Of a stretch of 64,000 nt of DNA, positions 11,218-42,340 are shown one piece after another. Each line of letters begins with the position of its first letter. Position 1 is the stretch's first letter. This DNA is from a virus. The notes beneath the pieces are model-generated. The model was not told the origin of the DNA. It saw only the letters and a list, made by a program, of their open reading frames with translations, and did not search any database. The translations under genes were made by a program, and so were the position numbers. The stretch covers positions 138,924 to 202,923 of IMG/VR virus record IMGVR_UViG_3300036772_000425; one strand, given 5' to 3'.

Positions 11218-11610
11218 ATGGAACGATCGTGCATCACAGACCAGGACGTACCCTCACCGCAGGCGCTCGTGGCGGACGCGCGGGCGAGGGAGGGGCTGCC
11301 GGGCGACCTGGTCAGCATCTCCTACGGGGCCGACCTTGTCCGCATCCGGAAACGGGGCCACGATTGGACCTTCGACACCTGGCACGAGCTCACCAAGGTC
11401 CTGCGCCCCGCGCACTACCTGGTCGTCTCCGTCTGCGGGGAGCGGCTGGGGTTGCTAGGGAACGACAATGCCTTCCTGCCCAACGCCCGGTCCGACAGCA
11501 TGTTCTTCCGGCGTTGGCCGGGAGATCCGCTGGTGAGGGCACGGGCCGCCGATGTCAGGGTGGTCCTGGTCTCCCGCACCCAGGAGGTCACCACGCATGG
11601 TCCCGGTTGA
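11218..11610 (+). CDS. PGD-motif small beta-barrel (KOW/Tudor-like) paralog 1 (start may be internal)
   Basis: LPGDLVSISYG...YLVVSVCGERLGLLGNDNAF family motifs. Confidence 0.5.
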   Translation: MERSCITDQDVPSPQALVADARAREGLPGDLVSISYGADLVRIRKRGHDWTFDTWHELTKVLRPAHYLVVSVCGERLGLLGNDNAFLPNARSDSMFFRRWPGDPLVRARAADVRVVLVSRTQEVTTHGPG

Positions 11611-11938
11611 CAGAGGCCCGCAGCTCCGGCCCGGGGACATCATCACCTCCATCCTGTACTGCGGCATGCCCCAGCGCCTGGTCCCATCACCCAGTGGGCC
11701 CAACGGCACCTTGTGGCGCGAGCTCGCCGACTGCTGGATCACCTCCGCTCCCGTCTACCTCGTGGTCTCCTCCACCGGTGGCCCGCAGCCCCTCTACAAC
11801 CTGCAGGGCACCACCCTCCTGCCGCGCGTCGACCTGTGCATGTTGTGGCACTGGAAGGGATCGACGAGCGTGATGATCGCCGCGCGGGAGCTGTCCTTCA
11901 CGGTCACCCGCCCGCCGGGGGAGCACCGTGGTCCATAG
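11597..11938 (+). CDS. PGD-motif small beta-barrel paralog 2
   Basis: RPGDIITS...YLVVSSTGG; overlaps upstream stop. Confidence 0.5.
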   Translation: MVPVDRGPQLRPGDIITSILYCGMPQRLVPSPSGPNGTLWRELADCWITSAPVYLVVSSTGGPQPLYNLQGTTLLPRVDLCMLWHWKGSTSVMIAARELSFTVTRPPGEHRGP

Positions 11939-12332
11939 GGGCGATGTCACCGTGCCCGGGGACCTGATCCGGATCCTGTACGAGCGTGAGCCGGTGCAGC
12001 TCGCCCTCCTCAGCACCGGGTACCACCTGCTCGTCCCGGGCCGGGCCACCTACCTCGTCGTCTGCGCCCAGGGTGACATGTTGGGCCTGCTCGACGGGCC
12101 GGGCGGCCTGTTCCACCCGCGGGTCTTCCTCCACAGCCTGTGGATCGACCGTGGGTTGACGCGGCGTGGGCGCATCAGCATGCAGTCCCTCCGGATCCAG
12201 TCCCTGCGGATCGGTGTGGTCACCCGCCCCCAGGGGTTCCCGCCCGTCGATGCCGCTGGTCCCTGCCTCGCTGGGCCCGCGATTATTCTGCCGCCGAACG
12301 GTGCAACCCCGGGCCCATCCGGTGTACCCTGA
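11928..12332 (+). CDS. PGD-motif small beta-barrel paralog 3 (3' end uncertain)
   Basis: GTG start overlapping; VPGDLIRIL...YLVVCAQGDMLGLLDGPG. Confidence 0.45.
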   Translation: MVHRGDVTVPGDLIRILYEREPVQLALLSTGYHLLVPGRATYLVVCAQGDMLGLLDGPGGLFHPRVFLHSLWIDRGLTRRGRISMQSLRIQSLRIGVVTRPQGFPPVDAAGPCLAGPAIILPPNGATPGPSGVP

Positions 12333-12399
12333 CCCAGTTCTCCCGTCTCTCTACCCGTCCAGGAAGGATCGTGTGACCGTGACCGAACCCGAGACCACC

Positions 12400-12822
12400 A
12401 TGAAGATCGTGCAGACCCTGAAGAGCACCTACCTCGCCGCCGCCGTGGAGGAGGGCGACAACACCACGGTCCTCCGGGGCGCCGTCGTCATCGACCTGGA
12501 TCAGGACCACGAGGAGCAGGCCAAGGAGTACGTGCGGGGCACCCTGACGGGCCGGGTGAAGACCGTCCGCGTCAAGAACGCCTCCGTGGAGTCCATCGAG
12601 GACGCCGACGACGCGGGCCCGATGGTGGAGCTGATGATGAAGTACGTGCCCCTCGCCGAGAAGAACGCACGGGCCAGCTCCATCCTCAAGGAGCTCAACA
12701 CCCTGATCGGCACCGTGGCATCACCGCGCGGCCGGGGCCGCACCAGCCGGCCCAAGCCCAAGCGTGATGAGGATGAGGGGGACGACGAGGAGGAAGAGGA
12801 AGAGACGGGCCGGTACCGGTGA
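12400..12822 (+). CDS. acidic-tailed DNA-binding/chaperone-like protein (141 aa)
   Basis: SD AGGAAGGA; C-terminus PRGRGRTSRPKPKRDEDEGDDEEEEEE (basic patch followed by poly-acidic tail); GTG alternative start 20-27 nt upstream possible. Confidence 0.5.
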   Translation: MKIVQTLKSTYLAAAVEEGDNTTVLRGAVVIDLDQDHEEQAKEYVRGTLTGRVKTVRVKNASVESIEDADDAGPMVELMMKYVPLAEKNARASSILKELNTLIGTVASPRGRGRTSRPKPKRDEDEGDDEEEEEETGRYR

Positions 12823-13283
12823 GCTTCCTGCGCAGGCTGCTGGGCTGGTTCCGGCGGACGTTCGTCCGGTCGCTGCCGGCCGCCCGGGACGATGCATGGC
12901 ACGTGGTGTACGAGGGCCCGAGCCTCCCGGGCTCGCCCATGGTGGCCCGCGGCCGGAAGCTGACCTGCTGGGTCCCGTACCCGGACGCTGAGCACCCAGC
13001 GCGCTTCGTCGCTCCGGGCTCCCTGTGCCACCCGTCCTTCGTCAGCCTGCGCTCCCGGGAGACGTACCCGTGCATCCTGGAACCCAGCGCCGACGGCACG
13101 CCCTGGTCCACATGCCGCCGGCAGCCGTACCGGGATGAACCCGTGGTGCCCGCCCTGTGCCTGCACCACGGGCCCGACTGCTTCCTGATCCTCCACCGGG
13201 GCACCGTCGTCGGGTACCGCAGGCAGGACCCGGGCTGGTGCAACGACACCACCGCGGTGATCCTGGTGGACTTCCCGTGCTGA
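12819..13283 (+). CDS. tandem-duplicated PG(S)-motif beta-barrel paralog (154 aa)
   Basis: two motif copies LPGSPMVARG and APGSLCHPSFVSL; GTGA overlap. Confidence 0.5.
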   Translation: MSFLRRLLGWFRRTFVRSLPAARDDAWHVVYEGPSLPGSPMVARGRKLTCWVPYPDAEHPARFVAPGSLCHPSFVSLRSRETYPCILEPSADGTPWSTCRRQPYRDEPVVPALCLHHGPDCFLILHRGTVVGYRRQDPGWCNDTTAVILVDFPC

Positions 13284-13558
13284 TGGTACCCGGATCGCTC
13301 GTCATGCTGCACTACGCCGGCAACCCGGTGAAGGTGGTGGACTGGCACCAGACCGCGATCCAGCACATCGGCAGCACCGCACGGCCGGTGCTGTACCTGG
13401 TCGTCGGCATCAACCCGTCCACGTGCTGGTTGTGCCTGCTGGGCCAGGACGGGCGGATCCATCAGCTGTGGCAGAGCTTCCAGGCGTTCGACCGGCACGG
13501 CAACTACCTGTCGGTGGGTCACTTCGGGCAGCTGGGCCACACCACGGTGAGCGCATGA
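13283..13558 (+). CDS. PGD-motif small beta-barrel paralog
   Basis: MVPGSLVML...LYLVVGINPSTCWLCLLGQDGRIHQLW; TGATG overlap. Confidence 0.55.
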   Translation: MVPGSLVMLHYAGNPVKVVDWHQTAIQHIGSTARPVLYLVVGINPSTCWLCLLGQDGRIHQLWQSFQAFDRHGNYLSVGHFGQLGHTTVSA

Positions 13559-13836
13559 CCAACGAGAAGCACGACCCCGAAGAGGCACTGTCCCGGGCCT
13601 CGGCCAGGTCGCTGGACCCACAGGTCCGGAGCTGGGTCAGGCGGTTCGAACGGTTGATGCGGGACATGCCGCCCGACACCCGGATCTACTGGCAGGAGAG
13701 GCACATGAACCTGATGGTGCTGGGACCCGACGGGGAGGACTACGTGGGCGTCGACAACGGTTTCGGAGCGAGCAGCGACCCGAACGCCGTGATCGCGATG
13801 GTCATGGTCCCGCGTTCCGACTCGGGTGCCTGGTGA
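13555..13836 (+). CDS. hypothetical protein (93 aa, not family)
   Basis: ATGA overlap; internal Met of ORF 13423..13836. Confidence 0.45.
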   Translation: MTNEKHDPEEALSRASARSLDPQVRSWVRRFERLMRDMPPDTRIYWQERHMNLMVLGPDGEDYVGVDNGFGASSDPNAVIAMVMVPRSDSGAW

Positions 13837-14159
13837 GCACAGGGCTCGTCCCTGGCGCCTGGGGGCACCTACTGCTGGAGCAGCGACCCGCCCAGCTCCG
13901 GACGTGGATGCAGTCGGTCGGGTCGCTCGCCCGCAAGGTGACCACCCAGTGCGTGACCCTGTGGTGGGGGCCCGAATGGTTGCCGCCCTTCTACCTGGTC
14001 CTGAGCTCGTGCCCGCAGGACGTCCTGCTGCTGGGCAACGACGGCCGGATCTGGCACCTGCAGGGTCCGAGGCTGGCATGCGTGCTGAATGACAGGTTGT
14101 GCTACGACGACAGGGGGCTTGGGGCCCTGGGCTTCGAGACGTTCGGGGCACCCACCTGA
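13833..14159 (+). CDS. PGD-motif small beta-barrel paralog
   Basis: LVPGAWGHLL...PPFYLVLSSCPQDVLLLGNDGRIWHL. Confidence 0.55.
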   Translation: MSTGLVPGAWGHLLLEQRPAQLRTWMQSVGSLARKVTTQCVTLWWGPEWLPPFYLVLSSCPQDVLLLGNDGRIWHLQGPRLACVLNDRLCYDDRGLGALGFETFGAPT

Positions 14160-14476
14160 TGGTCGCCGCGCGCGGCTTCATCCCTGGTTCCTGTGGGTAC
14201 CTGCGCATGGAGACCGACGTCTCGTGGCTGTGGCAACCCTCTGCGACCAGGATCGTGGTCCGCTCGTGGCTCAACCACCGCCCGGGGAACCTCCCGGTGT
14301 GCCCGAGACCACCGTGCTACCTGGTCCTCGGTCACCTGCCCGGGAAGCGGTTGTGGTTGCTGGACACGTGGTCCAGGGTGTGGGACGTGGACCTGCAGGA
14401 ACTGAGGCTGTTCACGGTGGACGGCGCGCCGCGGCGGCTCGATGAACACGACGACCTGAACCTGAGCGCACCATGA
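14159..14476 (+). CDS. PGD-motif small beta-barrel paralog
   Basis: FIPGSCGYL...PPCYLVLGHLPGKRLWLLDTWSRVWDVDL; TGATG overlap. Confidence 0.55.
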   Translation: MVAARGFIPGSCGYLRMETDVSWLWQPSATRIVVRSWLNHRPGNLPVCPRPPCYLVLGHLPGKRLWLLDTWSRVWDVDLQELRLFTVDGAPRRLDEHDDLNLSAP

Positions 14477-14784
14477 CCAAGAAGAAACCCTGCACCTTCG
14501 TCCCTGGTTCCTGGGGGCACCTGGCCTTCTGCGATCGGATCTCATGGCTGTGGTCAGACAACATGCTCCGGTTGTGGAACGGGTCGCTGGGGAGCACCTC
14601 GAAACCGCCGCGCTACCTGGTCCTGGGCCATCAACCCGGGCTCAGGTTGATCCTGCTGGACAGCTCTGGGCACGTCTGGACGGTGGAGTTCCGGGCGCTG
14701 CGGCGCTTCGTGTCCGAGAGGGTCCAGTGCGAGATCTTCATCGATGACCTGTCGTTGCATGCTGTCCAGGGCACGGCACGTTGA
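14473..14784 (+). CDS. PGD-motif small beta-barrel paralog
   Basis: FVPGSWGHL...PRYLVLGHQPGLRLILLDSSGHVWTVEF; near-duplicate of neighbours. Confidence 0.55.
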   Translation: MTKKKPCTFVPGSWGHLAFCDRISWLWSDNMLRLWNGSLGSTSKPPRYLVLGHQPGLRLILLDSSGHVWTVEFRALRRFVSERVQCEIFIDDLSLHAVQGTAR

Positions 14785-15131
14785 ACGATTCTTTCGTCCC
14801 GGGTGCCTGGGGACGCCTGGTCCTCAACGGCCAGATCTCATGGCTGTGGGCGGGTAACGCCACGTACGATCCTGAGATCCGACGAACCTTCATCCGGACA
14901 TGGGGAGGCGTCGGGCGCGCCCTGAGCGGCATCTCGGAACCACCGTGTTACCTCGTTCTGGCCTACGATCCTCAAGGCAGGATCGTCCTGTTGGACAGCG
15001 CAGGCCATGTCTGGGATCTAAATCTCCACGATCTCTTCGGTCTATCAACGACGGATCCTCGCACGGAACGCACCATCTTCAGGGTTGATTTTTCACGGTT
15101 GATCTTCTGCGAGGTCGGAGACGTGGGATGA
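14781..15131 (+). CDS. PGD-motif small beta-barrel paralog
   Basis: FVPGAWGRL...PPCYLVLAYDPQGRIVLLDSAGHVWDLNL. Confidence 0.55.
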   Translation: MNDSFVPGAWGRLVLNGQISWLWAGNATYDPEIRRTFIRTWGGVGRALSGISEPPCYLVLAYDPQGRIVLLDSAGHVWDLNLHDLFGLSTTDPRTERTIFRVDFSRLIFCEVGDVG

Positions 15132-15415
15132 CCAGGCGCGTCAGGAGGGCCCTGCCGGGCGACATGGTGTGGTTACGGGCGGGCAAGAACGTCGGTTGGT
15201 GGCACCTCGCCGTCGACCAGATCGACGGCAGGATGATCCTGCGACCCTGCAGGCGCCGGTACCTGCTGGTCCAGTACGTGCCGAGGGCACGCCTGTGCGT
15301 GGTGTCGCCCACCCTGGGTTTCCTGGACGTGGACCTGGAGCACCTGTGGACGCCGATGGGCAACGGCCACGGTTGGGAGCGTGTCGGTCCCAACATCTGG
15401 CCGGAGGTGATCTGA
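15128..15415 (+). CDS. PGD-motif small beta-barrel paralog
   Basis: LPGDMVWLRAG...RRYLLVQYVPRARLCVV. Confidence 0.55.
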   Translation: MTRRVRRALPGDMVWLRAGKNVGWWHLAVDQIDGRMILRPCRRRYLLVQYVPRARLCVVSPTLGFLDVDLEHLWTPMGNGHGWERVGPNIWPEVI

Positions 15416-15693
15416 TGCGAGCGAGGCCCGGCGACATGGTCACCCTGCACCTGGGCACACCGTCCAGGGAGTACCGGTTGGCGTACGACGCGGGGCGGGA
15501 GCTCGTCCTGGTCCCGGGCAGGGAACCCTACCTGTACGTGCAGGCAGCCGCCGACGGATGCACGCTGTGGTTTGTGTCGTCCGGGTTGGGTCCCCTGACC
15601 GTGCACCTGAAACAACTGCTGGTCGAGGGGTACAGAGGCTGGGATGGTTGGCACCACATCGGCGACAGGGTCCAGCTGGCGGTGATCCGTTGA
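15415..15693 (+). CDS. PGD-motif small beta-barrel paralog
   Basis: MRARPGDMVTL...EPYLYVQAAADGCTLWFV; TGATG overlap. Confidence 0.55.
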   Translation: MRARPGDMVTLHLGTPSREYRLAYDAGRELVLVPGREPYLYVQAAADGCTLWFVSSGLGPLTVHLKQLLVEGYRGWDGWHHIGDRVQLAVIR

Positions 15694-15992
15694 TCGCTGT
15701 CGCCCAGCTGAACCCAGGCGACATGGTGCGCCTGATCCACCTGTGCGGTGTCTTCGGCACGTGCTACCTCAGGCTCCATGCCGGGGAGGCTCGTGACGAC
15801 AGCATCCTGCTGGTGCAGGACCAGGCGGCGCCTGCGTACCTGGTCGTCTCCTGCAACCCGAACGGTGGGCTGGTGCTGATGGGTCCGGCGGGACCCTGGG
15901 AGCTGGGACCTGAGGATTCCGCAGAGTTCCGCTTCGCCGGTGGGTGCCACATCTCGCAGAAGGCCCGATTGCGGTTCGAGAGCGTCCTGTGA
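15690..15992 (+). CDS. PGD-motif small beta-barrel paralog (TTG start; or ATG at 15723)
   Basis: LNPGDMVRLIHL...PAYLVVSCNPNGGLVLMG. Confidence 0.45.
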   Translation: MIAVAQLNPGDMVRLIHLCGVFGTCYLRLHAGEARDDSILLVQDQAAPAYLVVSCNPNGGLVLMGPAGPWELGPEDSAEFRFAGGCHISQKARLRFESVL

Positions 15993-16252
15993 TGATCCTG
16001 AACCCGGGCGATCAGGTCAGGTTGGGATGGTCAACCGCATCAAAAGCTGATCTTGCATCGTCATCCTTCTGGCTCCCGCGCCCGGGTGCGGCCGAGAGCC
16101 TCTCCTACGTGGATTTCGCCCTTGCCCTCGTCATATCCTGCGACCAGGATCGTCTGCTCGTCATGATCTCAGGTGAACTGCTCGATCTCCATCCGGACGA
16201 GGCAGCCTTCTCAGGGTTTACCATCATCGTCACCCGTGGGTGGGGACCATGA
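15992..16252 (+). CDS. PGD-motif small beta-barrel paralog
   Basis: MILNPGDQVRLGW...LALVISCDQDRLLVMISGELLDL. Confidence 0.5.
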   Translation: MILNPGDQVRLGWSTASKADLASSSFWLPRPGAAESLSYVDFALALVISCDQDRLLVMISGELLDLHPDEAAFSGFTIIVTRGWGP

Positions 16253-16497
16253 TCGTGCCGGGTGATCAGGTTATGATAACGATCATGCCTGCCCTACGCG
16301 CAACGCGGCCCGCCAGCTTCTGGCTCCCGTGCGGTTTCAACTCACGGAAGTACGAATACGGGCGGGGCCTCGTCATCTCGATGAAGGACGAACGTCTGCT
16401 TGTCCTGGTGGGCCATACCCCGTGTGAGTTCGAACACGATGCCGCGGCCTACATGGGCTCCACCGTGATCATCTACCGGGGGTGGGACCGTGCCTGA
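16240..16497 (+). CDS. PGD-motif small beta-barrel paralog
   Basis: MIVPGDQVMITI...GLVISMKDERLLVLVG. Confidence 0.5.
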   Translation: MGTMIVPGDQVMITIMPALRATRPASFWLPCGFNSRKYEYGRGLVISMKDERLLVLVGHTPCEFEHDAAAYMGSTVIIYRGWDRA

Positions 16498-16822
16498 CCG
16501 GTTGAAGCTGCTGCCCGGTGACCAGGTCCGCATGGACTGGATCTGGGTCAACTACGGGCTGCAGGCCGAGCATCCGCTGGGTTCCCTGTGGCTCCCTGTC
16601 TGGGCTCCCAATGCCAACATGACGGCCGCCCAGCGGGCGGGACAGCATGGTCTCCTCCCCCATTGGGAAATCCTTCCGTATCCCGGCATCGTGGTGTACG
16701 CCAGGAAGCTGGTCGGAGCCAGCAACCGGCTGACGATCTTCACGTCGCTCGGCCTGACCCGGTTGGAACCCTACCTGGGCACCGGCGCGGACTCAGCGGT
16801 GCGGGTGTCCCGTGGGTGGTAG
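16490..16822 (+). CDS. PGD-motif small beta-barrel paralog
   Basis: LLPGDQVRMDWI... Confidence 0.5.
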   Translation: MPDRLKLLPGDQVRMDWIWVNYGLQAEHPLGSLWLPVWAPNANMTAAQRAGQHGLLPHWEILPYPGIVVYARKLVGASNRLTIFTSLGLTRLEPYLGTGADSAVRVSRGW

Positions 16823-17072
16823 GGTCCACAGCGTGCTCCCCGGAGACCACGTGCGCCTGCTCTGGGTGTACCGGGTGCTTGAGTCGGGCGAGGTGGGTTG
16901 GTTGCCGACCCGTGAAGAGCACAACACGATGCGGTCGCTGAAATGCTCATGTCTGGTGGTCTGCGCGCTGGACGACATGCTGCTGATCCTGACGGATGAC
17001 GGCGTGAAGGCGATCGAACTTGACCCGAAGCCCTGGGTGATGCCCACCCTCATCGTCTGCCCGTTCCCATGA
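16812..17072 (+). CDS. PGD-motif small beta-barrel paralog
   Basis: VLPGDHVRLLWV...CLVVCALDDMLLILTDDGVKAIELD. Confidence 0.5.
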   Translation: MGGRVHSVLPGDHVRLLWVYRVLESGEVGWLPTREEHNTMRSLKCSCLVVCALDDMLLILTDDGVKAIELDPKPWVMPTLIVCPFP

Positions 17073-17410
17073 CGACGCACGTGGACCCTCTCCTCGACAG
17101 CACGCCGTCGTTCTGCACCCTGAGGATCGGGCTACGCATCTACTCGGATGTGGACGTGGTGCCGGGTGACTTCGTCATGTTCCGTTCGTTCAACGATAAT
17201 TTCCGCCTGGCACTGCACAAGGACGTCACACGAGATGCTCGCTGCAGGTACATGGGACACGTAGGACTTGCACCCACGGGCACCGTGCCCACCCTGCTGG
17301 TGCACGTCTCAGCGGCGCGCCTGGTCCTCCTGCAGGGTCCTGTCCTGATCGACCTGGAACCTGATGACGTGACGCTCATGTACGACGTCATGATGGTGCG
17401 TGCCAGCTGA
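17069..17410 (+). CDS. PGD-motif small beta-barrel paralog
   Basis: VVPGDFVMFRSF...TLLVHVSAARLVLLQGPVLIDLEPDDV; ATGA overlap. Confidence 0.5.
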   Translation: MTTHVDPLLDSTPSFCTLRIGLRIYSDVDVVPGDFVMFRSFNDNFRLALHKDVTRDARCRYMGHVGLAPTGTVPTLLVHVSAARLVLLQGPVLIDLEPDDVTLMYDVMMVRAS

Positions 17411-17715
17411 TGCTGTTCTGCACGTCGCAGGCTGCGAACCGCTGCTCTTCTACGATCTGGTCACGCCCCGACGTGGCACCGGGCGACCTCTTCCGGTTCT
17501 GGTCAGTGGATTCCGAACCGGTCACCCTGACGCTGTGCCAGATCCCGAACATCGACTCCCACTGGTACTTCTCGTACGGGAACCCATCGCATCGGACCAT
17601 GCTGATCCACATCAGCACGAACCGGCTGGTCTTCCTGCAGGGTTGCAGGCTCGTCGACCTCAGCTCCGACGATGTCATTGGTGGGGCCGACGTTCGGATG
17701 CTGCCCATTGGGTGA
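17410..17715 (+). CDS. PGD-motif small beta-barrel paralog
   Basis: VAPGDLFRFWSV...TMLIHISTNRLVFLQGCRLVDLSSDDV. Confidence 0.5.
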   Translation: MLFCTSQAANRCSSTIWSRPDVAPGDLFRFWSVDSEPVTLTLCQIPNIDSHWYFSYGNPSHRTMLIHISTNRLVFLQGCRLVDLSSDDVIGGADVRMLPIG

Positions 17716-17741
17716 AACCATCCGAGCGCCGGTGGTAAGAT
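17712..17741 (+). promoter_or_regulatory. phage promoter GTGAAAC-N17-TAAGAT
   Basis: motif; ATG of AT-hook gene 8 nt downstream of -10. Confidence 0.5.
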
Positions 17742-17749
17742 GGAAAGGT

Positions 17750-18553
17750 ATGGAAGAATCCGTCCCTCTGGTCCCGGGCAGCTACCGGCTCCCCGACAGC
17801 TTCGGCGATCCTGACGAGGATGGGATCCCGCTCGACAAGCGTGCCGACCTGCTGGCCCCCGTCGCGACCACCGCGGAGACCGAGGGTTGGTCCACCTCCG
17901 TCGTCGATGACGATGAGGGCATCACGGGCGACTGCACCGTGGTCCGCGTCGGCGGGCACCTGGACCTCGCGCCCGCCCAGCGCCTGGCCCGATGGCAGTC
18001 GCGCCGGCCCAGGATCGACCACCTGCCCACCGGATCCGTCCACGTGCCGGTGATGCTGGACGACGACGGTTCGGTGGAGGCGCTGGCGCAGGTCCTGCCG
18101 ATCTTCGACGTGGGTGACCGGATCGTGGTCGAGCGCCGGACCGACCTGCTGGACGGGCAGCCCTGGCTGGACACCCTGGTGGGCCGGGTCTTCAGCATCG
18201 ATGATGACACCGGTGTGGTGTGCATGCTGGACGAGGAGAGCGATCCGCGGTGCCCGGTGCGAAGGTACGTCAGCCTGCGGAACGAGCTCCACGATGTCCG
18301 GTTGGCCCCCGCCCGGGGCAACCCGTTCAACGCAGGCCTGGCCCGAGCGCAGCTGAAGGAACAGGAGCGGCAGCGCCAGGCGAAGCTGCTGCAGGAACAG
18401 GGGCTGGAGGCACCCGCGAAGCGCGGCAGGGGCCGCCCGGCGGGCAGCAAGAACCGCCCGAAGGAGGTGGTCGCCGCGGAGAAGGAGCAGTACCGGCAGG
18501 AGCAGGTGCAGAAACGTGAGGAACGCCGGAAGCGCCGGCTGGGCCTGCTGTGA
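17750..18553 (+). CDS. AT-hook DNA-binding protein (267 aa)
   Basis: C-terminal KRGRGRPAGSKNRPK (GRP AT-hook core) followed by Lys/Glu/Arg-rich tail; own promoter inside the array. Confidence 0.6.
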   Translation: MEESVPLVPGSYRLPDSFGDPDEDGIPLDKRADLLAPVATTAETEGWSTSVVDDDEGITGDCTVVRVGGHLDLAPAQRLARWQSRRPRIDHLPTGSVHVPVMLDDDGSVEALAQVLPIFDVGDRIVVERRTDLLDGQPWLDTLVGRVFSIDDDTGVVCMLDEESDPRCPVRRYVSLRNELHDVRLAPARGNPFNAGLARAQLKEQERQRQAKLLQEQGLEAPAKRGRGRPAGSKNRPKEVVAAEKEQYRQEQVQKREERRKRRLGLL

Positions 18554-18861
18554 GCCTGAATCCAGGTGACCTGGTAAGCATCAGCTTCAGCAGTGCTTGG
18601 AGAGCGCACAGCCTCGGGACACTTGACATCTCGTACCGGACCACGCAGGAAAGCCTTGAGCAGCTGCGCATGCTGGGAGCAGCTGCGGCGGCCGACGGCG
18701 CCAAGCGGTGGAGAATCGATGGGTGCCTGGTGATATCGAACACCTGGAGCGCTGCAGCAAGCACGCTGGAGCTGCGCATCCTGCACGGTCAGCAGGTGCT
18801 GCACCTGATCAGGTGCGATGACATGCGGGCCGACTGCCTGGTCATGCGGGTCGATGCATGA
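18550..18861 (+). CDS. PGD-motif small beta-barrel paralog
   Basis: GTGA overlap; MSLNPGDLVSISF... Confidence 0.5.
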   Translation: MSLNPGDLVSISFSSAWRAHSLGTLDISYRTTQESLEQLRMLGAAAAADGAKRWRIDGCLVISNTWSAAASTLELRILHGQQVLHLIRCDDMRADCLVMRVDA

Positions 18862-19148
18862 TCACCCGGATGTTCAGCCAGCACCCGTTCTCTTCCGGAG
18901 AGATCGTTGGTGAGATCCGACCCGGGCAGCTGTTCCTTTTCGTTTTCACGGGCGCGCCGGTATCCGGATCGCTCCTGGCAGAGTGCATGCCGCAGGGTTG
19001 GTACTTCGTCGAGAATCCGAGCGATTGGGTTCTCATGCTGGTCCACTTCAGCGAGGAACTGCTGGTGTTCATGAGCCCATCCGGCCCCGTCCGCATCGAA
19101 GCAGGAAGGCTGCAGACGGGCAGCAAGATCAGCATGGTGCCCGTGTGA
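18858..19148 (+). CDS. PG-motif small beta-barrel paralog
   Basis: ATGA overlap; EIRPGQLFLFVF...WVLMLVHFSEELLVFMSPSG. Confidence 0.5.
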   Translation: MITRMFSQHPFSSGEIVGEIRPGQLFLFVFTGAPVSGSLLAECMPQGWYFVENPSDWVLMLVHFSEELLVFMSPSGPVRIEAGRLQTGSKISMVPV

Positions 19149-19399
19149 AACCGGGCGACATGGTCACGCTGGCATGGGACCACGAGTGCCTGGACGACCA
19201 GTTCTGGATCGGCGTCGACCAACCGACATGTGAAGGGTTGCTGCTGAGCGCCTGGGACGCACGGACGACATGGCTGGTGCTGTCAGTCCTCCACGGAGAT
19301 CGGATCACCATCTTCTCCGATTTCGGTACCTTCAACGTGTACATGCCGCGGCTCGGGCGCGATGGCAACGTGCCGCGGATGCTCATCAAGCCACTGTGA
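19145..19399 (+). CDS. PGD-motif small beta-barrel paralog (GTG start)
   Basis: VKPGDMVTLAWD...TWLVLSVLHGDRITIFSDFG. Confidence 0.45.
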   Translation: MKPGDMVTLAWDHECLDDQFWIGVDQPTCEGLLLSAWDARTTWLVLSVLHGDRITIFSDFGTFNVYMPRLGRDGNVPRMLIKPL

Positions 19400-19410
19400 G
19401 GACATCGTCA

Positions 19411-19704
19411 ATGGACAGGAAGCAACCCTCGACGTGGGCAGAACCCGGTGAACTGTGCGTGATGCAGTACCTGATCGAGGGCGGGCAGCTGTCGCATCCC
19501 TTCCTCGTACCGGGCCAACCGGCGAACCTGCTGGTGGCGATCGGGCCGGTCCGGGACGGGGTGCCCGAGCACGTCTGGATCCTCCGGGGACACAAGCTGA
19601 AGCGGATCGGTCGGGCGATCCCGCTCCGCCTGGAGCATGCGGTGCACCGTTCAGCCTGCGCAGAACGGTACGAACCGGACGCTCCACCGCCCTGGGTCGC
19701 ATGA
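19411..19704 (+). CDS. PG-motif small beta-barrel paralog
   Basis: GAGGA SD; AEPGELCVMQYL...LLVAIGPVRDG. Confidence 0.5.
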   Translation: MDRKQPSTWAEPGELCVMQYLIEGGQLSHPFLVPGQPANLLVAIGPVRDGVPEHVWILRGHKLKRIGRAIPLRLEHAVHRSACAERYEPDAPPPWVA

Positions 19705-19755
19705 GGCCCGTCGATCCTGTGCAACGTACCGACCGAACCTGGTAAGGATAGGAAC

Positions 19756-20199
19756 ATGAGCGACATCCAGCACACCATCGACGGGCTACGACGATCGGCC
19801 GAGCAGGACACCAAGCGTGCCGACGGGCTGCAGCTGCTGCTGGCCGCGTACCCGGACCTGAAGCGCCACGTGGACAGGTGGGACAAGGAGACATTCTGCT
19901 CCCGCACCGTCAACGCGAAGGTGATCTCGTACGACATGAAGCGCAACTGCGGGTGCTGCGCAGACACCCCGGTGGAGGTGTGGCCCTACCTGGACACGAG
20001 CAACGGCAGGGTCCACAGCGATCCGCCTTGCTTCCGGGTCGGGAACCAGGACCCGGAGTCCTACACGTACGTGGCACGGTTCGGGTGGGAGGAGGGCCTA
20101 CGCAGCGCCGGCATCCCCGACGAGATGATCGGCAGGATCGGCCTGAGCCTCAGCCCGGCCGTCGAACCGGAACTGACGGCGGAGGTCGATTACCCATGA
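19756..20199 (+). CDS. hypothetical Cys-rich protein (147 aa)
   Basis: AAGGATAGGA SD; CGCCADTPVE. Confidence 0.55.
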   Translation: MSDIQHTIDGLRRSAEQDTKRADGLQLLLAAYPDLKRHVDRWDKETFCSRTVNAKVISYDMKRNCGCCADTPVEVWPYLDTSNGRVHSDPPCFRVGNQDPESYTYVARFGWEEGLRSAGIPDEMIGRIGLSLSPAVEPELTAEVDYP

Positions 20200-21560: not shown

Positions 21561-21820
21561 TCCGGCCGGGCGACATGGTGGTGTGGCGAGGGGCCCTATC
21601 GTTCGCGGTGGCACCCGAGGCGATCACCTGGTCGGAGCACGCCGGGCGCTTCGTACCGATCGGGTCGAGGATGTGCCACATGGTGGTGTCGGTGGTCGAC
21701 GGCGTGATCACATGGATCAACCCCGAAGGCTGCCACTCGTACGATACCTCCCGTCGCATGTCGAGCGACCCGTACCCGGTCGCCGTCCTGCCGGCCAGCG
21801 GCCCACCGGAGGTCGCATGA
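21557..21820 (+). CDS. PGD-motif small beta-barrel paralog
   Basis: GTGA overlap; VIRPGDMVVWRG... Confidence 0.5.
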   Translation: MIRPGDMVVWRGALSFAVAPEAITWSEHAGRFVPIGSRMCHMVVSVVDGVITWINPEGCHSYDTSRRMSSDPYPVAVLPASGPPEVA

Positions 21821-35005: not shown

Positions 35006-35205
35006 GCGTCCTGTGGACCCATGCCCAGAATAACGGCTTCGAGTTCCGGACCCTGTTCGAGGCTGACGGAACTGAGGAGCCGGGGACCATGGTGCACCAC
35101 TGCTACGATCCGACCATCGCGGGCATCATCGTCTCCCGCAACTCCGATGATGACACGTTGATCCTGTGGTCCAGGCCGCCTCCCTTCCCGCCCGGCGGCT
35201 GGTGA
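35002..35205 (+). CDS. small beta-barrel paralog (67 aa)
   Basis: ATGA overlap; IAGIIVSRNSDDDTLILWSRP. Confidence 0.45.
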   Translation: MSVLWTHAQNNGFEFRTLFEADGTEEPGTMVHHCYDPTIAGIIVSRNSDDDTLILWSRPPPFPPGGW

Positions 35206-35420
35206 TGGAGATCAAGGCGTACGATGAGGACTGCTCGCCGGCCAGCATGCTGACGGCCCACGATCAGCATCGAAATGATCACGATTACGTGCCCGGCATG
35301 CTGGTCTCGCACCGGGTGTGGGACAGCGGTTCTGGGATCGCGATCGTGTTCGGGATAGTGGTGTCTGTGACGGGCGGCGGCACCGTCAACGTGCTGTGGT
35401 CGAGAGGACCGATCAAATGA
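35205..35420 (+). CDS. PG-motif small beta-barrel paralog (71 aa)
   Basis: VPGMLVSHRVWDSGSGIAIVFGIVVSVTGGGTVNVLWSRG. Confidence 0.5.
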   Translation: MEIKAYDEDCSPASMLTAHDQHRNDHDYVPGMLVSHRVWDSGSGIAIVFGIVVSVTGGGTVNVLWSRGPIK

Positions 35421-35758
35421 GTTCCCTGTGTACGTACGCTCGGGCCAACACGTTCAAGAAGGTCGAGCCAACAGAGGCGGGAGCAGCGCTCGCTCCGGGC
35501 ACCTTCGTGACTCTCAGGCAGGTTGTCGGCGGCGCATCAGGCTTCGGGACGGTAGTTTCGGCCGACGCAGTCTCCATCACCGTCCTGTGGTCCTCAGAGC
35601 CGGCGAAGGGCCCGAACTTCCAGTTCCCGAACGTGAAAAAGGTGCAGATGGGCCTGATCGCCCAGAACGTCATCGACATCCAACCGATGACCGGACCGTC
35701 GGCCAAGGTCTTCTTCATGGATTGGGACTACGCAAGCGGTTCCAAGGGCGCGCCGTGA
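35417..35758 (+). CDS. PG-motif beta-barrel paralog (113 aa)
   Basis: ATGA overlap; LAPGTFVTLRQVVGGASGFGTVVSADAVSITVLWSS. Confidence 0.5.
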   Translation: MSSLCTYARANTFKKVEPTEAGAALAPGTFVTLRQVVGGASGFGTVVSADAVSITVLWSSEPAKGPNFQFPNVKKVQMGLIAQNVIDIQPMTGPSAKVFFMDWDYASGSKGAP

Positions 35759-35802
35759 CCCACCCAAGAATTCGCAGGGTTCGGGTGCAGTAAACCACCT
35801 GA

Positions 35803-35830
35803 CCATCCTACGTAATCGTGGATAGGATGG
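35803..35830 (+). promoter_or_regulatory. palindrome CCATCCTA-N12-TAGGATGG in intergenic region (candidate operator/promoter)
   Basis: perfect 8-bp inverted arms; TAGGAT is a -10-like hexamer; lies in 80-nt gap before 35838 gene. Confidence 0.3.
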
Positions 35831-35837
35831 GATACAG

Positions 35838-36215
35838 GTGTCATCACCCCTCACATCACGCATGATGGTGGGTCTCCGGAAGCCGGGAGCAGAGCTCCGC
35901 GTGGGTGACCTGGTGATGTGGTACGGGAAGCCGAGCGACTACGCCAGCTTCCAGCGCCGCGTGGTGTACCAGGTGGTGGAACGGATCGAGCCCAGCCAGG
36001 ACGAGGGCCGGCAGGCACAGTACCGGTACCGTCCGGTGTTCGACCTAGAGAACCCGATCGGGGTGCCGACAGAACCCACCTGCCTGATGTCGAGCCGTGA
36101 GATGAAGCAGATCAGGTTGATCGACCTAGGGATGATGCGGATGCTGTTCGACAGCTTCATCCGGACGTGGATCGCCGACCAGGGCTCGCCAGAAGCAACG
36201 GACGACGGAGGGTAG
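35838..36215 (+). CDS. KOW/Tudor-like protein (125 aa; start may be ATG at 35862)
   Basis: LRVGDLVMWYGKPSDYASFQRRVVYQVVERI. Confidence 0.5.
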   Translation: MSSPLTSRMMVGLRKPGAELRVGDLVMWYGKPSDYASFQRRVVYQVVERIEPSQDEGRQAQYRYRPVFDLENPIGVPTEPTCLMSSREMKQIRLIDLGMMRMLFDSFIRTWIADQGSPEATDDGG

Positions 36216-36216
36216 C

Positions 36217-36837
36217 ATGGGCCAACGTGGACTGCTCGGAAGCTTGGTGATCGCGTTGGTGGTCGGCTGCTCCTGGACACCCCACGAACCCACGCAGCAT
36301 GCGCTGCTGAAGACCCACCACGTTCTTCGCCTGCACGGGGACGACACCTTCACCGGGCCTGAGCGTGAGATGGTGCAGGAAGCCGCGGACGACGTGTTCA
36401 TCCAGACGTCAGGCCTCCTGCAGGTCATCGTGAACTTCGATTTCGATTTCGACAGGTTGGGCCTGGACGCCTGGCTCACCCGCACCAACCTGCTGGTCCG
36501 GACACCGAAGGATGCCTCGTACGTGGTCTCACGCGAACGGACAGGGAAGGTCATGCTCGGGATGGTGGTGGGGGTGAACCTGCAGGACTACGATCAGACC
36601 GCGCCGATGCAGGTTCACCTGATCGCCGACAGGTTGACGGATCGGAAGGTCTTCATCCAGGTCGCTGAGCACGAGTTCTACCATGCCTTCGGCCTGAACC
36701 ACGTCAAGGATCCGCACAGCGTGCTGTACCCAGAGGTGTTCCTGCAGGCGCCTCGTACCTGCATCAGCGAGGCAGACGCAGCAGAGATCTGCAGGGTCTA
36801 CGGGTGTTGGACAGGCGACCTCAACACCTGCACCTGA
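36217..36837 (+). CDS. secreted zinc metalloprotease lipoprotein (metzincin-like, 206 aa)
   Basis: signal/lipobox LVIALVVGCS; HEFYHAFGLNH (HExxHxxGxxH). Confidence 0.75.
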   Translation: MGQRGLLGSLVIALVVGCSWTPHEPTQHALLKTHHVLRLHGDDTFTGPEREMVQEAADDVFIQTSGLLQVIVNFDFDFDRLGLDAWLTRTNLLVRTPKDASYVVSRERTGKVMLGMVVGVNLQDYDQTAPMQVHLIADRLTDRKVFIQVAEHEFYHAFGLNHVKDPHSVLYPEVFLQAPRTCISEADAAEICRVYGCWTGDLNTCT

Positions 36838-38694: not shown

Positions 38695-38906
38695 GCGTTC
38701 CGGAAATCTTCTGCTGCATCGCAGCCGTGTTCGACATCATGATCTTCGTCTGGTTGGTGGGCACCTGGTTCTTCGAGGGCCACCACAAGCAGTGCAAGGT
38801 CGATGTGATCGCAACCTTCACCTGCGCCGAGTGCAAGAAGGAATTCGACGTAGAGACTGAGGTCGATTGCTCCGCATGTGCAGGGGGCCACGTCGAGGAA
38901 TCATGA
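38691..38906 (+). CDS. membrane protein with zinc-ribbon (71 aa)
   Basis: GTGA overlap; TM segment then CAEC...CSAC. Confidence 0.45.
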   Translation: MSVPEIFCCIAAVFDIMIFVWLVGTWFFEGHHKQCKVDVIATFTCAECKKEFDVETEVDCSACAGGHVEES

Positions 38907-39721
38907 CAGATCGGACCATCCTGATCGGCGACCTCCACGGCTGCGCCGACGAGGCGGAAGCGCTCCTCCGGAAGTTGCAGCCCACGGCGGCCGACTGGAT
39001 CGTCTGGTTGGGAGATTACGTCGATCGGGGCCCGAACAGCGTGGGCTGCGTGGACCTGGTCCGCAGGCGGGAACAGGTGCAGGGCCGCTGCGCCGGCATC
39101 CTTGGAAATCATGAAGAAAGGATGCTAGAGCATGAACAACGTGCCATGGAGCTGGGCCGTGAGCCTGAGATGCCCATGTCGCATGCCTTGACCCGTGCAC
39201 AGCTGCGGGACGAGCACTACGACTGGTTCAGGCAGCTCCCTCTCTTCCTGCGGATCCCTGAGCACAACGCGGTCGCGGTCCATGCCGGTGTCTTCCCAGG
39301 CCTGCCCATCGAACAGCAGACGCAGCGGACCCTGCTCCATGTCCAGATGCTGAAACCGTACGATGCAGAGGGCCGAGAGCTGTACAAGGACGGAAAACGA
39401 CACGATGCATCGTGCTGGGTCAGCAAGGTGCCCGCGGGTGAGGAGCACCTGTGGCGGTTCTGGACGCACTTCTACGAAGGTCCGGAAACGATCGTCTTCG
39501 GCCACAGCGTGTTCGACCGGCCCCTGATCACCCAGAACACGTTCGGGATCGACGGCGGGGTGCCCTTCGGCCTGCAGCTCCATGCGTTGGTCCTGCCCGA
39601 ACGCCGGATCGTCACCGTGAACTCTCCGAAGGACTACAGCAGGGCGACCCGCGGTAGCCGGAAGGATCCGATCCGGAACAAGCGGTTCTGGGTGCACGGC
39701 GACGTCCACACCTTCTCGTGA
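38903..39721 (+). CDS. Ser/Thr protein phosphatase, PPP family (lambda phosphatase/ApaH-like)
   Basis: ATGA overlap; metallophosphoesterase motifs GDLHG, GDYVDRG, GNHE. Confidence 0.8.
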   Translation: MTDRTILIGDLHGCADEAEALLRKLQPTAADWIVWLGDYVDRGPNSVGCVDLVRRREQVQGRCAGILGNHEERMLEHEQRAMELGREPEMPMSHALTRAQLRDEHYDWFRQLPLFLRIPEHNAVAVHAGVFPGLPIEQQTQRTLLHVQMLKPYDAEGRELYKDGKRHDASCWVSKVPAGEEHLWRFWTHFYEGPETIVFGHSVFDRPLITQNTFGIDGGVPFGLQLHALVLPERRIVTVNSPKDYSRATRGSRKDPIRNKRFWVHGDVHTFS

Positions 39722-40328: not shown

Positions 40329-40495
40329 AGGCGGGCGACCTCGTTGCCGTTCAGGCACCACATCGTCCCGATCAGCATGGTCACGATGCACAGAACCCTG
40401 TCCATCGACCCGGTTGGGACACAGTAGGCACAGCACACCGCTCCGATCAGGAGCAGCTTGCTGACCAGGTACCCCAACCGGGTCGGGCTCATCAA
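40295..40495 (-). CDS. small membrane protein (66 aa)
   Basis: ORF track; hydrophobic LLLIGAVCCAYCV. Confidence 0.4.
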   Translation of the reverse strand: MMSPTRLGYLVSKLLLIGAVCCAYCVPTGSMDRVLCIVTMLIGTMWCLNGNEVARLQELSMTSEHE

Positions 40496-40767
40496 AGCCG
40501 CCGGGTGACCCGACCTCGGGTCAGGTCGTACGGGCTCACGGCCAGCAGGATCCTGTCACCGGGCAGCAGCCTGATCCTGTGGATCCGCATCCTACCGCTC
40601 AGGGTGCAGATCACCTCGTGACCGGTGCTGCACTTGATCCGAAAGAGCGTCCCGGGTAGGGCCTCGACCACCGTCCCGTCAAGGTCGATGCGGTCCTGCC
40701 GCTCCTCCTCGTCGGTTGTCGACCCGTGCGCCCGGTTGCGTCCATTCCTGTTCTTCTTCATTCTCAT
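40492..40767 (-). CDS. infA: translation initiation factor IF-1 homologue with basic N-terminal extension
   Basis: DGTVVEALPGTLFRIKCSTGHEVICTLSGRMRIHRIRLLPGDRILLAVSPYDLTRGRVTRR aligns with bacterial IF-1 ([61 protein letters not shown]); start set to internal Met MRMKKNRNG. Confidence 0.7.
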   Translation of the reverse strand: MRMKKNRNGRNRAHGSTTDEEERQDRIDLDGTVVEALPGTLFRIKCSTGHEVICTLSGRMRIHRIRLLPGDRILLAVSPYDLTRGRVTRRL

Positions 40768-40945: not shown

Positions 40946-41326
40946 CTAAGTACACAGGTCGACCAGGCGTCGGGCCCAACACATCACCCAATCCCTGCTG
41001 GCCTCGTGCAGGGTACCGTCAGCCCTCACGATCACAAGGCTCGCGCCGTACAATCCTGGCCGGGCCAGACCCGACGGTAGTTTCAGTGCGGATGCATCGA
41101 GCTCCAGCACCGACCCAGCTCCCGTCATGCACACGATCTGTGCGCCGTTCGGATGGTACCCTGCGGCCATGATCAGTCGGGCACGATCGGGAGACGTCGC
41201 GACGACGTGCAGCTCCGGATCCGGCAGCAGCTGCAGGTACTCCGGCAGCTCCATGGTGAGCCCTTGCGCCTGGTCGATGATGAGGTGACCGTCGAGTTCC
41301 AGCTGCACAGTGCCACTGTACGCCAC
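40946..41326 (-). CDS. hypothetical protein (126 aa)
   Basis: ORF track. Confidence 0.45.
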   Translation of the reverse strand: MAYSGTVQLELDGHLIIDQAQGLTMELPEYLQLLPDPELHVVATSPDRARLIMAAGYHPNGAQIVCMTGAGSVLELDASALKLPSGLARPGLYGASLVIVRADGTLHEASRDWVMCWARRLVDLCT

Positions 41327-41344
41327 GTGGCATCGGTGTTACAA

Positions 41345-41566
41345 TCACGCATGCCCAGGTTCGCTGAACTGCCCCTGCCGGGTGACATGCTCCTCAACAA
41401 GTCGAACGACAGGATGGTGATGGTTGTCTCGAGCAGGGCGATCGAGTACCCGGGTCCCTGGACGCAGTTCCATGTCAACGTCCTGGACAGGGACAGGGTG
41501 GTGCTCTACGATGTTGACGATATCCGGTTCACCAACATGTTCGAACAGATCCATGATTCCCGATGA
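41345..41566 (+). CDS. PGD-motif small beta-barrel paralog (73 aa)
   Basis: LPLPGDMLLNKS...; TGTTACAAT -10-like just upstream. Confidence 0.5.
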   Translation, partial: SRMPRFAELPLPGDMLLNKSNDRMVMVVSSRAIEYPGPWTQFHVNVLDRDRVVLYDVDDIRFTNMFEQIHDSR

Positions 41567-41804
41567 GCCTCGGATCATGCCGGGCGACATGGTGGTCGCC
41601 CTCAGGCCGACACGTGGGTGGGAGTCTGAACTGTCACGCGGTACCGACGGGATGATCGTCAACGTCGGGTCGGGTGGGTTGGTCCTGGAAACATGGCCGG
41701 AGGGCGGCCGGTTGCGCCTCCGGCTCCTGCTCGCAGGGAGGATCATCGTGGTCTCATGCAAGGCCCACAACGTGCTCAAGAACTGGACAATTGCCGCACG
41801 TTAG
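41553..41804 (+). CDS. PGD-motif small beta-barrel paralog
   Basis: IMPGDMVVALRP...; overlaps upstream stop. Confidence 0.5.
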   Translation: MIPDEPRIMPGDMVVALRPTRGWESELSRGTDGMIVNVGSGGLVLETWPEGGRLRLRLLLAGRIIVVSCKAHNVLKNWTIAAR

Positions 41805-41851
41805 GCTGTGGGGTGCACCGTCAGGTGCCTGCGAATAAACTCGTGAATGGT

Positions 41852-42079
41852 CTAGGTGACACCATGAGGCTCGATGGGCACCAGCTCCCACCTATCGATC
41901 GGTCCGAACGGGTTGGGTCCGGGCCAGCGCCTGTCCGATATCAGGATCCAGTACGATAGTGGCTGCAGGCCCAGGCCCCTGATCGCAGCGTCAGGGACAC
42001 TGTTGGCGTGTTGCGCACAGATGATCAGACCTGTCATCCCAGTCGACCCAACCCGAACCAGCTCGCCCGGCTGCAGCAT
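41852..42079 (-). CDS. PG-motif small beta-barrel paralog (minus-strand copy)
   Basis: MLQPGELVRVGSTGMTGLIICAQ. Confidence 0.5.
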   Translation of the reverse strand: MLQPGELVRVGSTGMTGLIICAQHANSVPDAAIRGLGLQPLSYWILISDRRWPGPNPFGPIDRWELVPIEPHGVT

Positions 42080-42085
42080 CTGTTG

Positions 42086-42340
42086 CTAGGTAGGCAACGA
42101 CACGTAGGGTTGGATCCATCGTTCCAGGATCCAACCCACCCGACCCGAGCGCATGCTCCAGATCAGGTACCTCCTGATGACAGAGGGCTGTGCCTCGTGG
42201 ATGACCATGACCTGGAGCACCGTGCACACCTCCCCGGGTACCACCCTGCCCGCCGGAGCGTACCAGCATCCGAGCAGGTAGTCTGGGTGCTGGTCCAGGA
42301 AGGAATGTTCGGAAGATACGACCAGGTCTCCCGGGACCAT
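42086..42340 (-). CDS. PGD-motif small beta-barrel paralog (minus-strand copy)
   Basis: MVPGDLVVSSEHS... Confidence 0.5.
   Translation of the reverse strand: MVPGDLVVSSEHSFLDQHPDYLLGCWYAPAGRVVPGEVCTVLQVMVIHEAQPSVIRRYLIWSMRSGRVGWILERWIQPYVSLPT

Follow-up and report, generated by a model that had tools for sequence, protein, structure and literature searches.

A tandem array of small, highly diverged proteins with a predicted SH3-like fold in a huge soil phage: candidate binders of host factors

The DNA considered here is a stretch of 64,000 nucleotides (nt) (positions 138,924 to 202,923 of the IMG/VR virus record IMGVR_UViG_3300036772_000425), hereafter the window, which belongs to a phage genome of about 340 kb from soil. 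It contains a tandem array of small genes, many of which encode proteins with a short N-terminal motif, PG[DQSETAN][LMIVFQ][VILMFC]. The GC content of the window is about 64%, at which raw lists of open reading frames (ORFs) consist mostly of spurious frames; genes were therefore called from codon usage and from GC content at third codon positions (GC3). Among the 146 genes called, those located between 11218 and 36837 on the + strand form a near-unbroken run of genes of 65-135 amino acids (aa). Further copies are found at 41207..41804 (+), and an inverted pair is found on the - strand. These calls reproduce the coordinates and the two inverted copies given by the initial annotation of this DNA. 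Its interleaving of the array with AT-hook, acidic-tail and Lys-rich proteins and with a homolog of the major vault protein (MVP) is also visible in the sequences. The features are collected in Table 1.

The motif is found in 39 of the 146 called proteins, for 2.6 expected from residue shuffles (maximum 8 in 500 shuffles); its strict form PGD[LMIVF][VILMFC] is found 21 times for 0.4 expected. With the final gene starts, 44 genes in 11218..42340 carry a strict PG[D/Q/S/T/E..]-hydrophobic-hydrophobic motif inside the first 75 residues. This count uses the true starts at 13283, 13833, 18550, 19145, 24676 and 25083 (GTG or ATG codons overlapping the preceding stop, recognised from DNA repeats and upstream in-frame sequence), places 17410..17715 on the + strand and includes 41852..42079 (-). 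About 11 further genes carry variant motifs (PGSWG, FGDVV, PGQLW, PGDAV, PGMLV, VGDLV, PGTRV), which brings the array, as read from the motifs, to roughly 55 candidate members. The IF-1 homolog at 40492..40761 (-) carries a PG motif by chance and is excluded. Non-ATG starts are frequent, as had been proposed (20 of 67 genes of the + strand).

Of the 68 junctions between successive genes in 11218..36837, 46 are overlaps (4 nt: 27; 1 nt: 7; other lengths: 12). The array was first described as a single translationally coupled chain. This description is not retained: 34 of the 68 junctions are of the 4-nt or 1-nt type, and the run splits into about 10 blocks at gaps of more than 20 nt and at unrelated interspersed genes (longest blocks: 14 and 17 genes). 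Overlaps of these two types are not special to the array, as they are found at 22 of 77 junctions elsewhere in the window; they are found at 19 of 27 junctions in the array of a related phage. The array genes are tightly packed and, judging from the overlaps, probably translationally coupled within blocks.

The members were sorted by eye and with MAFFT into five subgroups: A1, A2, B1, B2 and C. A1 and A2 (11.2-19.7 kb) have the core 'YLVVs..g.rLxLL..G'. B1 (22.3-26.2 kb, 29.0-29.6 kb and 42.1 kb) has the core 'EVghVIa...hhhLh..G.hGW....L'. C (33.3-35.8 kb) ends in 'VLWS'. B2 is heterogeneous. Pairwise phmmer comparisons among window members give small clusters only, and a hidden Markov model (HMM) built from five sequences recruits no other members above decoys. 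A leave-one-out global HMM with the motif masked gives a modest signal (z above 2 for 18 of 37 members). In hhalign comparisons between window subgroups, the aligned part is the motif only (10-14 columns, P 1e-3 to 2e-2). When the motif is removed, only the comparison of B1 with the external family (see below) is significant by the hhalign P-value. A column-permutation control of the same motif-removed comparisons gives z 10.7 for A1-A2, 6.1 for B1-C and 5.5 for A1-B2; the external family gives 4.3 with C, 3.9 with A2 and 2.9 with B2; A1 gives 1.9 with B1 and 0.7 with the external family. Profile-profile comparison of all subgroups, by which the initial annotation had wished its family to be checked, thus ties B1 to the external family, whereas the other subgroups share little beyond the motif. 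The window copies appear so diverged that their subgroups are united only by the N-terminal motif and the strand pattern, a point that is mostly established.

Relatives were found in other phages. Among 1.84 billion representative proteins, the B1 profile retrieves the window proteins and nine small metagenomic proteins of the same architecture. One of the nine (P0025) is encoded by a 345,630-bp ENA contig, ZJ_forest2028851 (54-55% GC), which carries at least 43 tandem genes of 75-100 aa across about 27 kb. Their shared signature, 'MKPGDLV ... GxhGhVhA ... VLFpGPxLGW', stands out much more clearly, and this array aligns with B1 over 80 columns (hhalign probability 96.9%, E 1.4e-10). The AT-hook gene of the window, used as an anchor, leads to 18 further loci in JGI metagenomes (including contigs of 369 kb and 361 kb) and to one IMG/VR contig. 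A jackhmmer search seeded with 22593..22838 collects 153 ORFs in the related loci and 0 decoys; seeds of the A, B2 and C types reach no relatives in other genomes, except for one B2 match. That the family forms arrays in a clade of soil phages of about 340-370 kb is shown for the most part. A megablast search of 20 kb of the window against GenBank phages gave no match. Word-index searches for homologs (one protein, two alignments) yielded proteins of the same two contigs and, beyond these, of one short ENA contig only. GTDB genomes contain no relative of the AT-hook anchor or of P0014, so they give no clue to the host.

An external HMM was built from 114 unique members of the other genomes, window sequences being excluded, and the best of 1,470 shuffled decoys (E 5e-3) was taken as threshold. 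Twenty-three window proteins score below this decoy, 12 of them with E below 1e-4. They include members of A1 (11218, 13283, 15128), A2 (17069, 19145) and B2, whose alignments span 45-65 profile positions, well past the motif. No C-type protein falls below the best decoy; 33332..33676 lies exactly at the threshold. Conversely, where the A and B2 HMMs give weak matches in other genomes, the matched proteins are bona fide members of the family. About 23 genes of the window are demonstrably, at the level of sequence profiles, members of one family. The remaining motif-bearing candidates, about 30, have E 1e-2 to 1 with the external HMM and motif-removed z from 0.7 to 10.7 depending on the pair. 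They are probably extremely diverged members or derivatives, as suggested by motif, size, position and weak profile signals. The identification of the core family is held with high confidence; that most of the candidates belong to it is likely. The figure of more than 50 copies given by the initial annotation stands only as a count of candidates (44 strict and about 11 variant), not as one homogeneous family: 23 are statistically supported, and the rest are linked by motif, position and weak profile signals.

Two further proposals concerned domains. Internal duplications had been suggested in 12819..13283 and 30195..30548; these genes show no self-similarity and have one weak domain match each, and the suggestion is discarded. 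A 156-aa protein encoded by a 926-bp ENA contig (P0027) has two family domains fused in tandem, which indicates that real domain duplication does occur in the family, though not in these two genes. Related C-terminal domains had been reported at 4426..5199, 50691..50948 and 54550..54864. They match neither the family HMM nor Pfam and have only a generic KOW/SH3-like pattern. The first (-) is the ortholog (E 9e-41) of L003:273..923 (-) of a related phage; both are Ala/Lys-rich, end in a KOW-like GQTVKVRGG...GATGTVVKV and adjoin the array region.

AlphaFold2, applied to the B1 alignment, gives a confident all-beta model of 22593..22838 (pLDDT 83.7, pTM 0.72). The model conforms to the SH3-like class of small beta-barrels (antiparallel, strongly bent, with five to six strands in about 60-80 residues) and can be superposed on known SH3-like domains. 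As a model prediction, an SH3-like small beta-barrel is mostly shown for these stand-alone proteins, whose length is about 70-110 aa; for the A-type members (11.2-19.7 kb), whose model is weak, this fold is a candidate. In the 114 relatives, strand 1 is [M/L]-K-P-G-D-L-V. It is followed by a variable stretch with one aromatic position, the central strand G-x-h-G-L-V-I-A, a second variable loop and the last hairpin, h-L-V-L-F-x-G-P-x-L-G-W-h...L..V. Information per column is 1.3-6.2 bits in the barrel strands and 0.2-0.5 bits in the loops; P3, G4, G65 and W66 are almost invariant. Length also varies in the low-information regions, which are the segment joining strand 1 to the central strand and the loop that precedes the last hairpin. 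A quick check, made without signal-peptide or transmembrane predictor, showed no long hydrophobic N-terminal or internal segment.

The family does not appear to have been described, as the initial annotation had supposed: no Pfam or PHROGs family matches it, the PDB contains no sequence relative (the profile gave chance L35 matches only), a Foldseek search of BFVD gave no significant neighbour (nothing below E 0.02), and no description was found in the literature. The initial annotation had likened the proteins to SH3-like folds of the KOW, Tudor or PRC type. The B1 model is SH3-like, but HMM matches to KOW (PF00467), Hva1_TUDOR (PF11160) and the PRC barrel (PF05239) are absent (77 window proteins, E 0.1 or better; 26 relatives, E 1 or better). 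Two other families were considered and rejected. SH3_3 (PF08239) matches none of the 77 window proteins at E 0.1 or better, and the best of 26 related-phage members has E 0.073. For GW (PF13457), the best E is 0.26, and the hhalign alignment with GW repeats covers only 24-37 columns, in the last two strands, at 22-28% probability. The B1 profile also matches multi-repeat GW-domain autolysins. The likeness is confined to the last hairpin; the family is therefore a member of neither GW nor SH3_3.

The loci of the window and of ZJ_forest2028851 are syntenic: a KOW-like gene and the genes encoding the KaiC-like ATPase, the AT-hook protein and the 2H phosphoesterase are orthologous (E 1e-11 to 1e-120). 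Unlike these neighbours, no family member has a match better than 9e-6 between the two loci. In 74 of 110 cases, where 22 would be expected, a member has its best-matching paralog in its own genome, and the median distance between the two is about 700 nt. Comparison of copy number in related genomes, another check that had been proposed, gives 0 to at least 40 copies between the same anchors. From the ATPase gene to the AT-hook gene, B1-type copies number 0 in locus L014, 4 in L013, 8 in L011 and at least 40 in ZJ_forest, and the same interval of the window holds 19-20 A-type genes. From the AT-hook gene to the MVP gene, there is 1 copy in L017, 2 in L008, 3 in L014 and 4 in L007, and the window has about 25 candidates. 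Nearest paralogs in the same genome and a varying copy number between fixed orthologous anchors are features of a birth-and-death multigene family in fixed hot spots. It is shown, for the most part, that members arise by local duplication, diverge rapidly and are lost again, in hot spots flanked by conserved anchors (KaiC-like ATPase, AT-hook protein, MVP). The AT-hook anchor is not matched by the family HMM. All 19 related loci contain it, and it serves well as a marker gene for the clade.

The run could be heterogeneous, with only the B1-type genes and a few others (about 23) as true family, the rest being ORFans or a second and third family that share the motif by convergence or through a common beta-hairpin start. 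The non-significance of hhalign for most motif-removed subgroup pairs speaks for it, as do the five-sequence HMM that recruits nothing above decoys, the A-, B2- and C-type seeds that reach other genomes only through one B2 match, and the weakness of the A-group model. It is nevertheless considered unlikely. The external HMM picks up A1, A2 and B2 members over 45-65 positions, permutation z of 2.9-10.7 links A1-A2, A1-B2, B1-C and the external family with A2, B2 and C, and the weak A and B2 matches elsewhere land on bona fide members. The motif is always at the start of a domain of the same size, and A-type genes fill the ATPase-to-AT-hook interval that core copies occupy in relatives.

The best overall explanation of the locus, to which a probability of roughly 45% is given, is that of tandemly amplified SH3-like barrels that would act as cytoplasmic binders for host takeover or counter-defence. 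The function taken alone, binding of host factors, is tentative, at somewhat less than even odds. Genes co-transcribed in blocks and translationally coupled through overlapping stop and start codons would yield many different cytoplasmic barrels together. The variable loops of each barrel, which would be the counterparts of the ligand-binding loops in SH3-type folds, would bind a distinct target, stoichiometrically. Host proteins would be the likeliest targets, among them defence factors or other takeover targets that differ from host to host. In this view the array would provide binders or inhibitors as a germline-encoded repertoire and would resemble the multigene families of large eukaryotic viruses. 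SH3-type folds bind ligands via the loops between their strands. Birth-and-death turnover, hypervariable loops on a conserved scaffold and mixed charge favour diversified binders over a uniform nucleic-acid-binding or structural role. Jumbo phages are documented to carry lineage-specific expansions, such as the zinc ribbon of Bacillus phage G with about 35 copies (Iyer et al. 2021, PMC7824862). For Borgs and giant viruses, sets of multicopy genes that diverge rapidly have been explained as 'accordion' or counter-defence products (10.1101/2024.11.05.622173).

Several points weigh against this explanation. Motif-removed comparisons give no significant relationship of A1, of C or of part of A2 and B2 to the core family. 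Analogy and the evolutionary pattern are the only arguments for a binder or counter-defence role. The sequences are too diverged for dN/dS to be computed, and the scaffold may tolerate fast neutral drift. Scans of the array for sigma-70 promoters and intrinsic terminators gave nothing above chance, so the operon structure is read from spacing alone. A bolder version is rather doubtful: the clade of 340-370-kb soil phages would keep a continually renewed repertoire of tens of SH3-fold 'mini-binders', built as a conserved barrel with two hypervariable loops, each neutralising or recruiting a different host or competitor factor. This repertoire would arise by tandem birth-and-death in fixed hot spots adjoining the vault-protein gene. 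In this bolder version, it would be a phage counterpart of the immune-evasion multigene families of giant eukaryotic viruses and an alternative to diversification by diversity-generating retroelements (DGRs).

Other roles would be compatible with a small barrel. The proteins could be nucleic-acid-binding or ribosome- or RNA-polymerase-binding modulators (KOW, Tudor, Sm or CarD type) of host transcription or translation or of phage chromatin, and their neighbours include the AT-hook protein, a Lys-rich protein, IF-1 and GroEL. Predicted pI spans 4.1 to 11.1, and most of the related-phage copies are acidic (median 5.4; 17 of 23 below 6). This spread argues against a uniform nucleic-acid-binding role and for diverse targets. 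With no Pfam KOW, Tudor or PRC match, and with fifty divergent copies that fit poorly with a single conserved nucleic-acid or polymerase target, such a role is improbable.

Cargo or adaptors for a vault-like shell built by the neighbouring MVP homolog would fit the location of the MVP gene inside the array region. MVP orthologs (61-71% identity) are found in L007, L008, L014 and L017, always a few kb downstream of the AT-hook gene and syntenic with family copies; close relatives are, however, expected to be syntenic whatever the function. The number of copies beside the MVP gene, from 1 to many, does not suggest a fixed stoichiometric partner. In GenBank, tblastn with the MVP found only huge uncultured phages (LR756500, 462 kb; LR756501 and LR756503, 735 kb) at 40-42% identity. 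LR756500 and LR756501, which are distant and low in GC, have no motif-bearing ORFs within 20 kb of the MVP gene. To our knowledge, the family has no similarity to known vault-interaction domains. No MVP relatives were found in IMG/VR, and an exact-sequence look-up of the window MVP and of P0001 gave no record. The synteny keeps the vault idea alive without giving it specific support, and this role is judged quite improbable.

Large phages have paralogous families of packaged proteins, and packaging as internal, ejected or decoration proteins, like the paralogous inner-body proteins of large phages, would in principle allow the conserved N-terminus to serve as a targeting tag. This N-terminus is strand 1 of the barrel in the model and not a detachable leader, no structural genes are recognisable in the array, and extreme turnover among close relatives is unusual for structural parts, all of which makes a virion role very improbable. 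Functionless decaying duplicates or mis-called ORFs, which high GC (a source of many spurious ORFs) and the need to correct several start codons might suggest, are hardly credible given the GC3 and codon-usage signal in the called frame, the precise stop/start overlaps, and the invariant P, G, G and W and conserved strand positions in 114 sequences from phages of 54-68% GC.

The window contains other features (Table 1). Acidic-tail and Lys-rich proteins are encoded by further interspersed non-family genes. At least six genes have a promoter-like motif, GTGAAAC-N16-TGGTA(G/A)A(C/T)T, whose end lies 7-9 nt upstream of the start codon. This spacing points to leaderless or near-leaderless transcripts; the family blocks have no such motif upstream. 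Two apparently non-coding gaps, 52115-52822 (708 nt) and 57061-57824 (764 nt), have a GC content of 0.47-0.48 amid 55-65% GC and no Rfam or tRNA match.

Table 1. Members and candidate members of the family, anchors and other features of the window. E: E-value with the external HMM unless a Pfam accession or an ortholog is given.
Feature	Position	Strand	Characteristics
Promoter-like motif sites (- genes)	613-655, 2355-2395, 3236-3279, 4244-4285	-	GTGAAAC-N16-TGGTA(G/A)A(C/T)T
Promoter-like motif sites (+ genes)	6520-6556, 17713-17749	+	same motif
tRNA-Met	4281..4356	-	
KaiC-like ATPase	6809..7603		orthologs at 50-73% identity in relatives
Three A1-type members	11218..11610, 11597..11938, 11928..12332	+	PGDLV/PGDII/PGDLI, then YLVV...LLG core; 11218..11610, E 1e-3
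A1-type member	13283..13558	+	MVPGSLV...; E 4e-5
Four-copy sub-array	13833..14159, 14159..14476, 14473..14784, 14781..15131	+	variant motif FVPG(S/A)WG; period about 296-332 nt; phmmer cluster, DNA direct repeats D2, D5, D7 and D12, alignment
Nine successive members	15128..17715	+	PGDMV (three), PGDQV (three), motif-less 16851..17072, PGDFV, APGDLF (17410..17715)
AT-hook protein (conserved anchor, non-family)	17750..18553	+	SH3-like-patterned domain (FDVGDRIVV...) and AT-hook (KRGRGRPAGSKNRPK); orthologs at 39-53% identity in 19 related loci
Four members	18550..18861 (GTG start), 18858..19148, 19145..19399 (GTG start, MKPGDMV), 19411..19704	+	motif, HMM
Twelve successive members	20639..24021	+	nearly all joined by 4-nt overlaps; 22319..24021 is the core of B1 (PGDLV ... 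EVghVIa ... hhhLh..G.hGW....L)
2H phosphoesterase (interspersed, non-family)	24294..24689	+	PF22547, E 4.8e-7; related-phage ortholog, E 2e-37
Five B1-type members	24676..24963, 25083..25379, 25379..25654, 25654..25932, 25899..26177	+	E 2e-3 to 3e-7, except 25379..25654 (E 0.2)
Two B1-type members	29035..29576	+	E 7e-11 and 7e-5
Member with N-terminal extension	30195..30548	+	PGQLV at residue 28; E 6e-5
MVP homolog (871 aa, non-family)	30620..33235	+	PF11978 MVP_shoulder, E 5e-29; weak Vault-repeat and SPFH matches
Eight C-type candidates (weakest group)	33332..35758	+	PG.hV ... G.G.VVs ... V.VLWS; phmmer connects 33673..34149, 35002..35205 and 35417..35758; 33332..33676, E 5e-3
Matrixin-like metallopeptidase	36217..36837		N-terminal hydrophobic segment
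Metallophosphatase-like protein	38903..39721		judged from sequence only
IF-1 homolog	40492..40761	-	PF01176, E 1.6e-21
Two members	41207..41566, 41577..41804	+	motif; 41577..41804, E 2e-3
Two inverted members	41852..42079, 42086..42340 (B1-type)	-	42086..42340, E 8e-12
GroEL-like chaperonin	42730..44385	-	judged from sequence

If the diversified-binder explanation is correct, the array ranks among the largest expansions of a single-domain paralog seen in phages (about 45-55 genes, an estimated 16 kb or so, about 5% of a 340-kb genome) and represents a new protein family on a very common fold. Huge phages could then grow in the manner of an accordion, by amplifying small binder genes at fixed hot spots. 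As a natural collection of stable, variable-loop barrels of about 80 aa, the array could be a source of inhibitors of bacterial defence or housekeeping proteins and of a binder scaffold. The sequence signature and the anchor genes would also serve to recognise a clade of huge phages of soil that had gone unremarked and whose members encode vault-protein homologs as well.

The DGR target proteins of phages have a conserved scaffold with hypervariable ligand-binding positions, and the family is alike in concept. Its diversity consists of many germline paralogs and not of the products of mutagenic retrohoming. DGR-type diversification was rejected, as no near-identical template and variable DNA repeats were found; no reverse transcriptase was noticed in the window, whose larger proteins were not annotated systematically. 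The SH3b (SH3_3, PF08239) and GW (PF13457) domains of Gram-positive autolysins and InlB are alike in the last hairpin ('...hhLh..G.hGW....L'), whereas the N-terminal PGDLV and the central GxhGLVIA strand are specific to the phage family. GW domains are secreted tandem repeats fused to cell-wall hydrolases; the phage proteins are stand-alone, with no long hydrophobic segment seen. Sequence identity with the family is 5-17% for chromo-like, KOW, Tudor and PWWP barrels and for the barrel at the N-terminus of the restriction endonuclease Hpy99I. No match was obtained between these profiles (PF00467, PF11160, PF05239) and the family, which has neither a conserved aromatic cage nor the KOW glycine pattern.

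The zinc ribbons of Bacillus phage G (about 35 copies; PMC7824862) also consist of dozens of copies of a small domain in one very large phage. The family described here differs by its SH3-like predicted fold, by copies that are strictly tandem and located in probably coupled blocks and syntenic hot spots, and by its distribution over a clade, with 0 to more than 40 copies. The 'genomic accordions' of large eukaryotic DNA viruses and the multicopy genes of Borgs (10.1101/2024.11.05.622173) share tandem duplication, rapid divergence, copy-number variation and a presumed role in host interaction or counter-defence. Here the genomes are those of bacteriophages, the units are much smaller (about 85 aa, single domain) and the roles are putative. 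The fold is common and paralog expansions in very large phages are already known. What is new is a family absent from Pfam, PHROGs and the PDB, its scale of about 45-55 candidate copies, its architecture of a scaffold with variable loops, and its location in syntenic hot spots of vault-encoding huge phages of soil.

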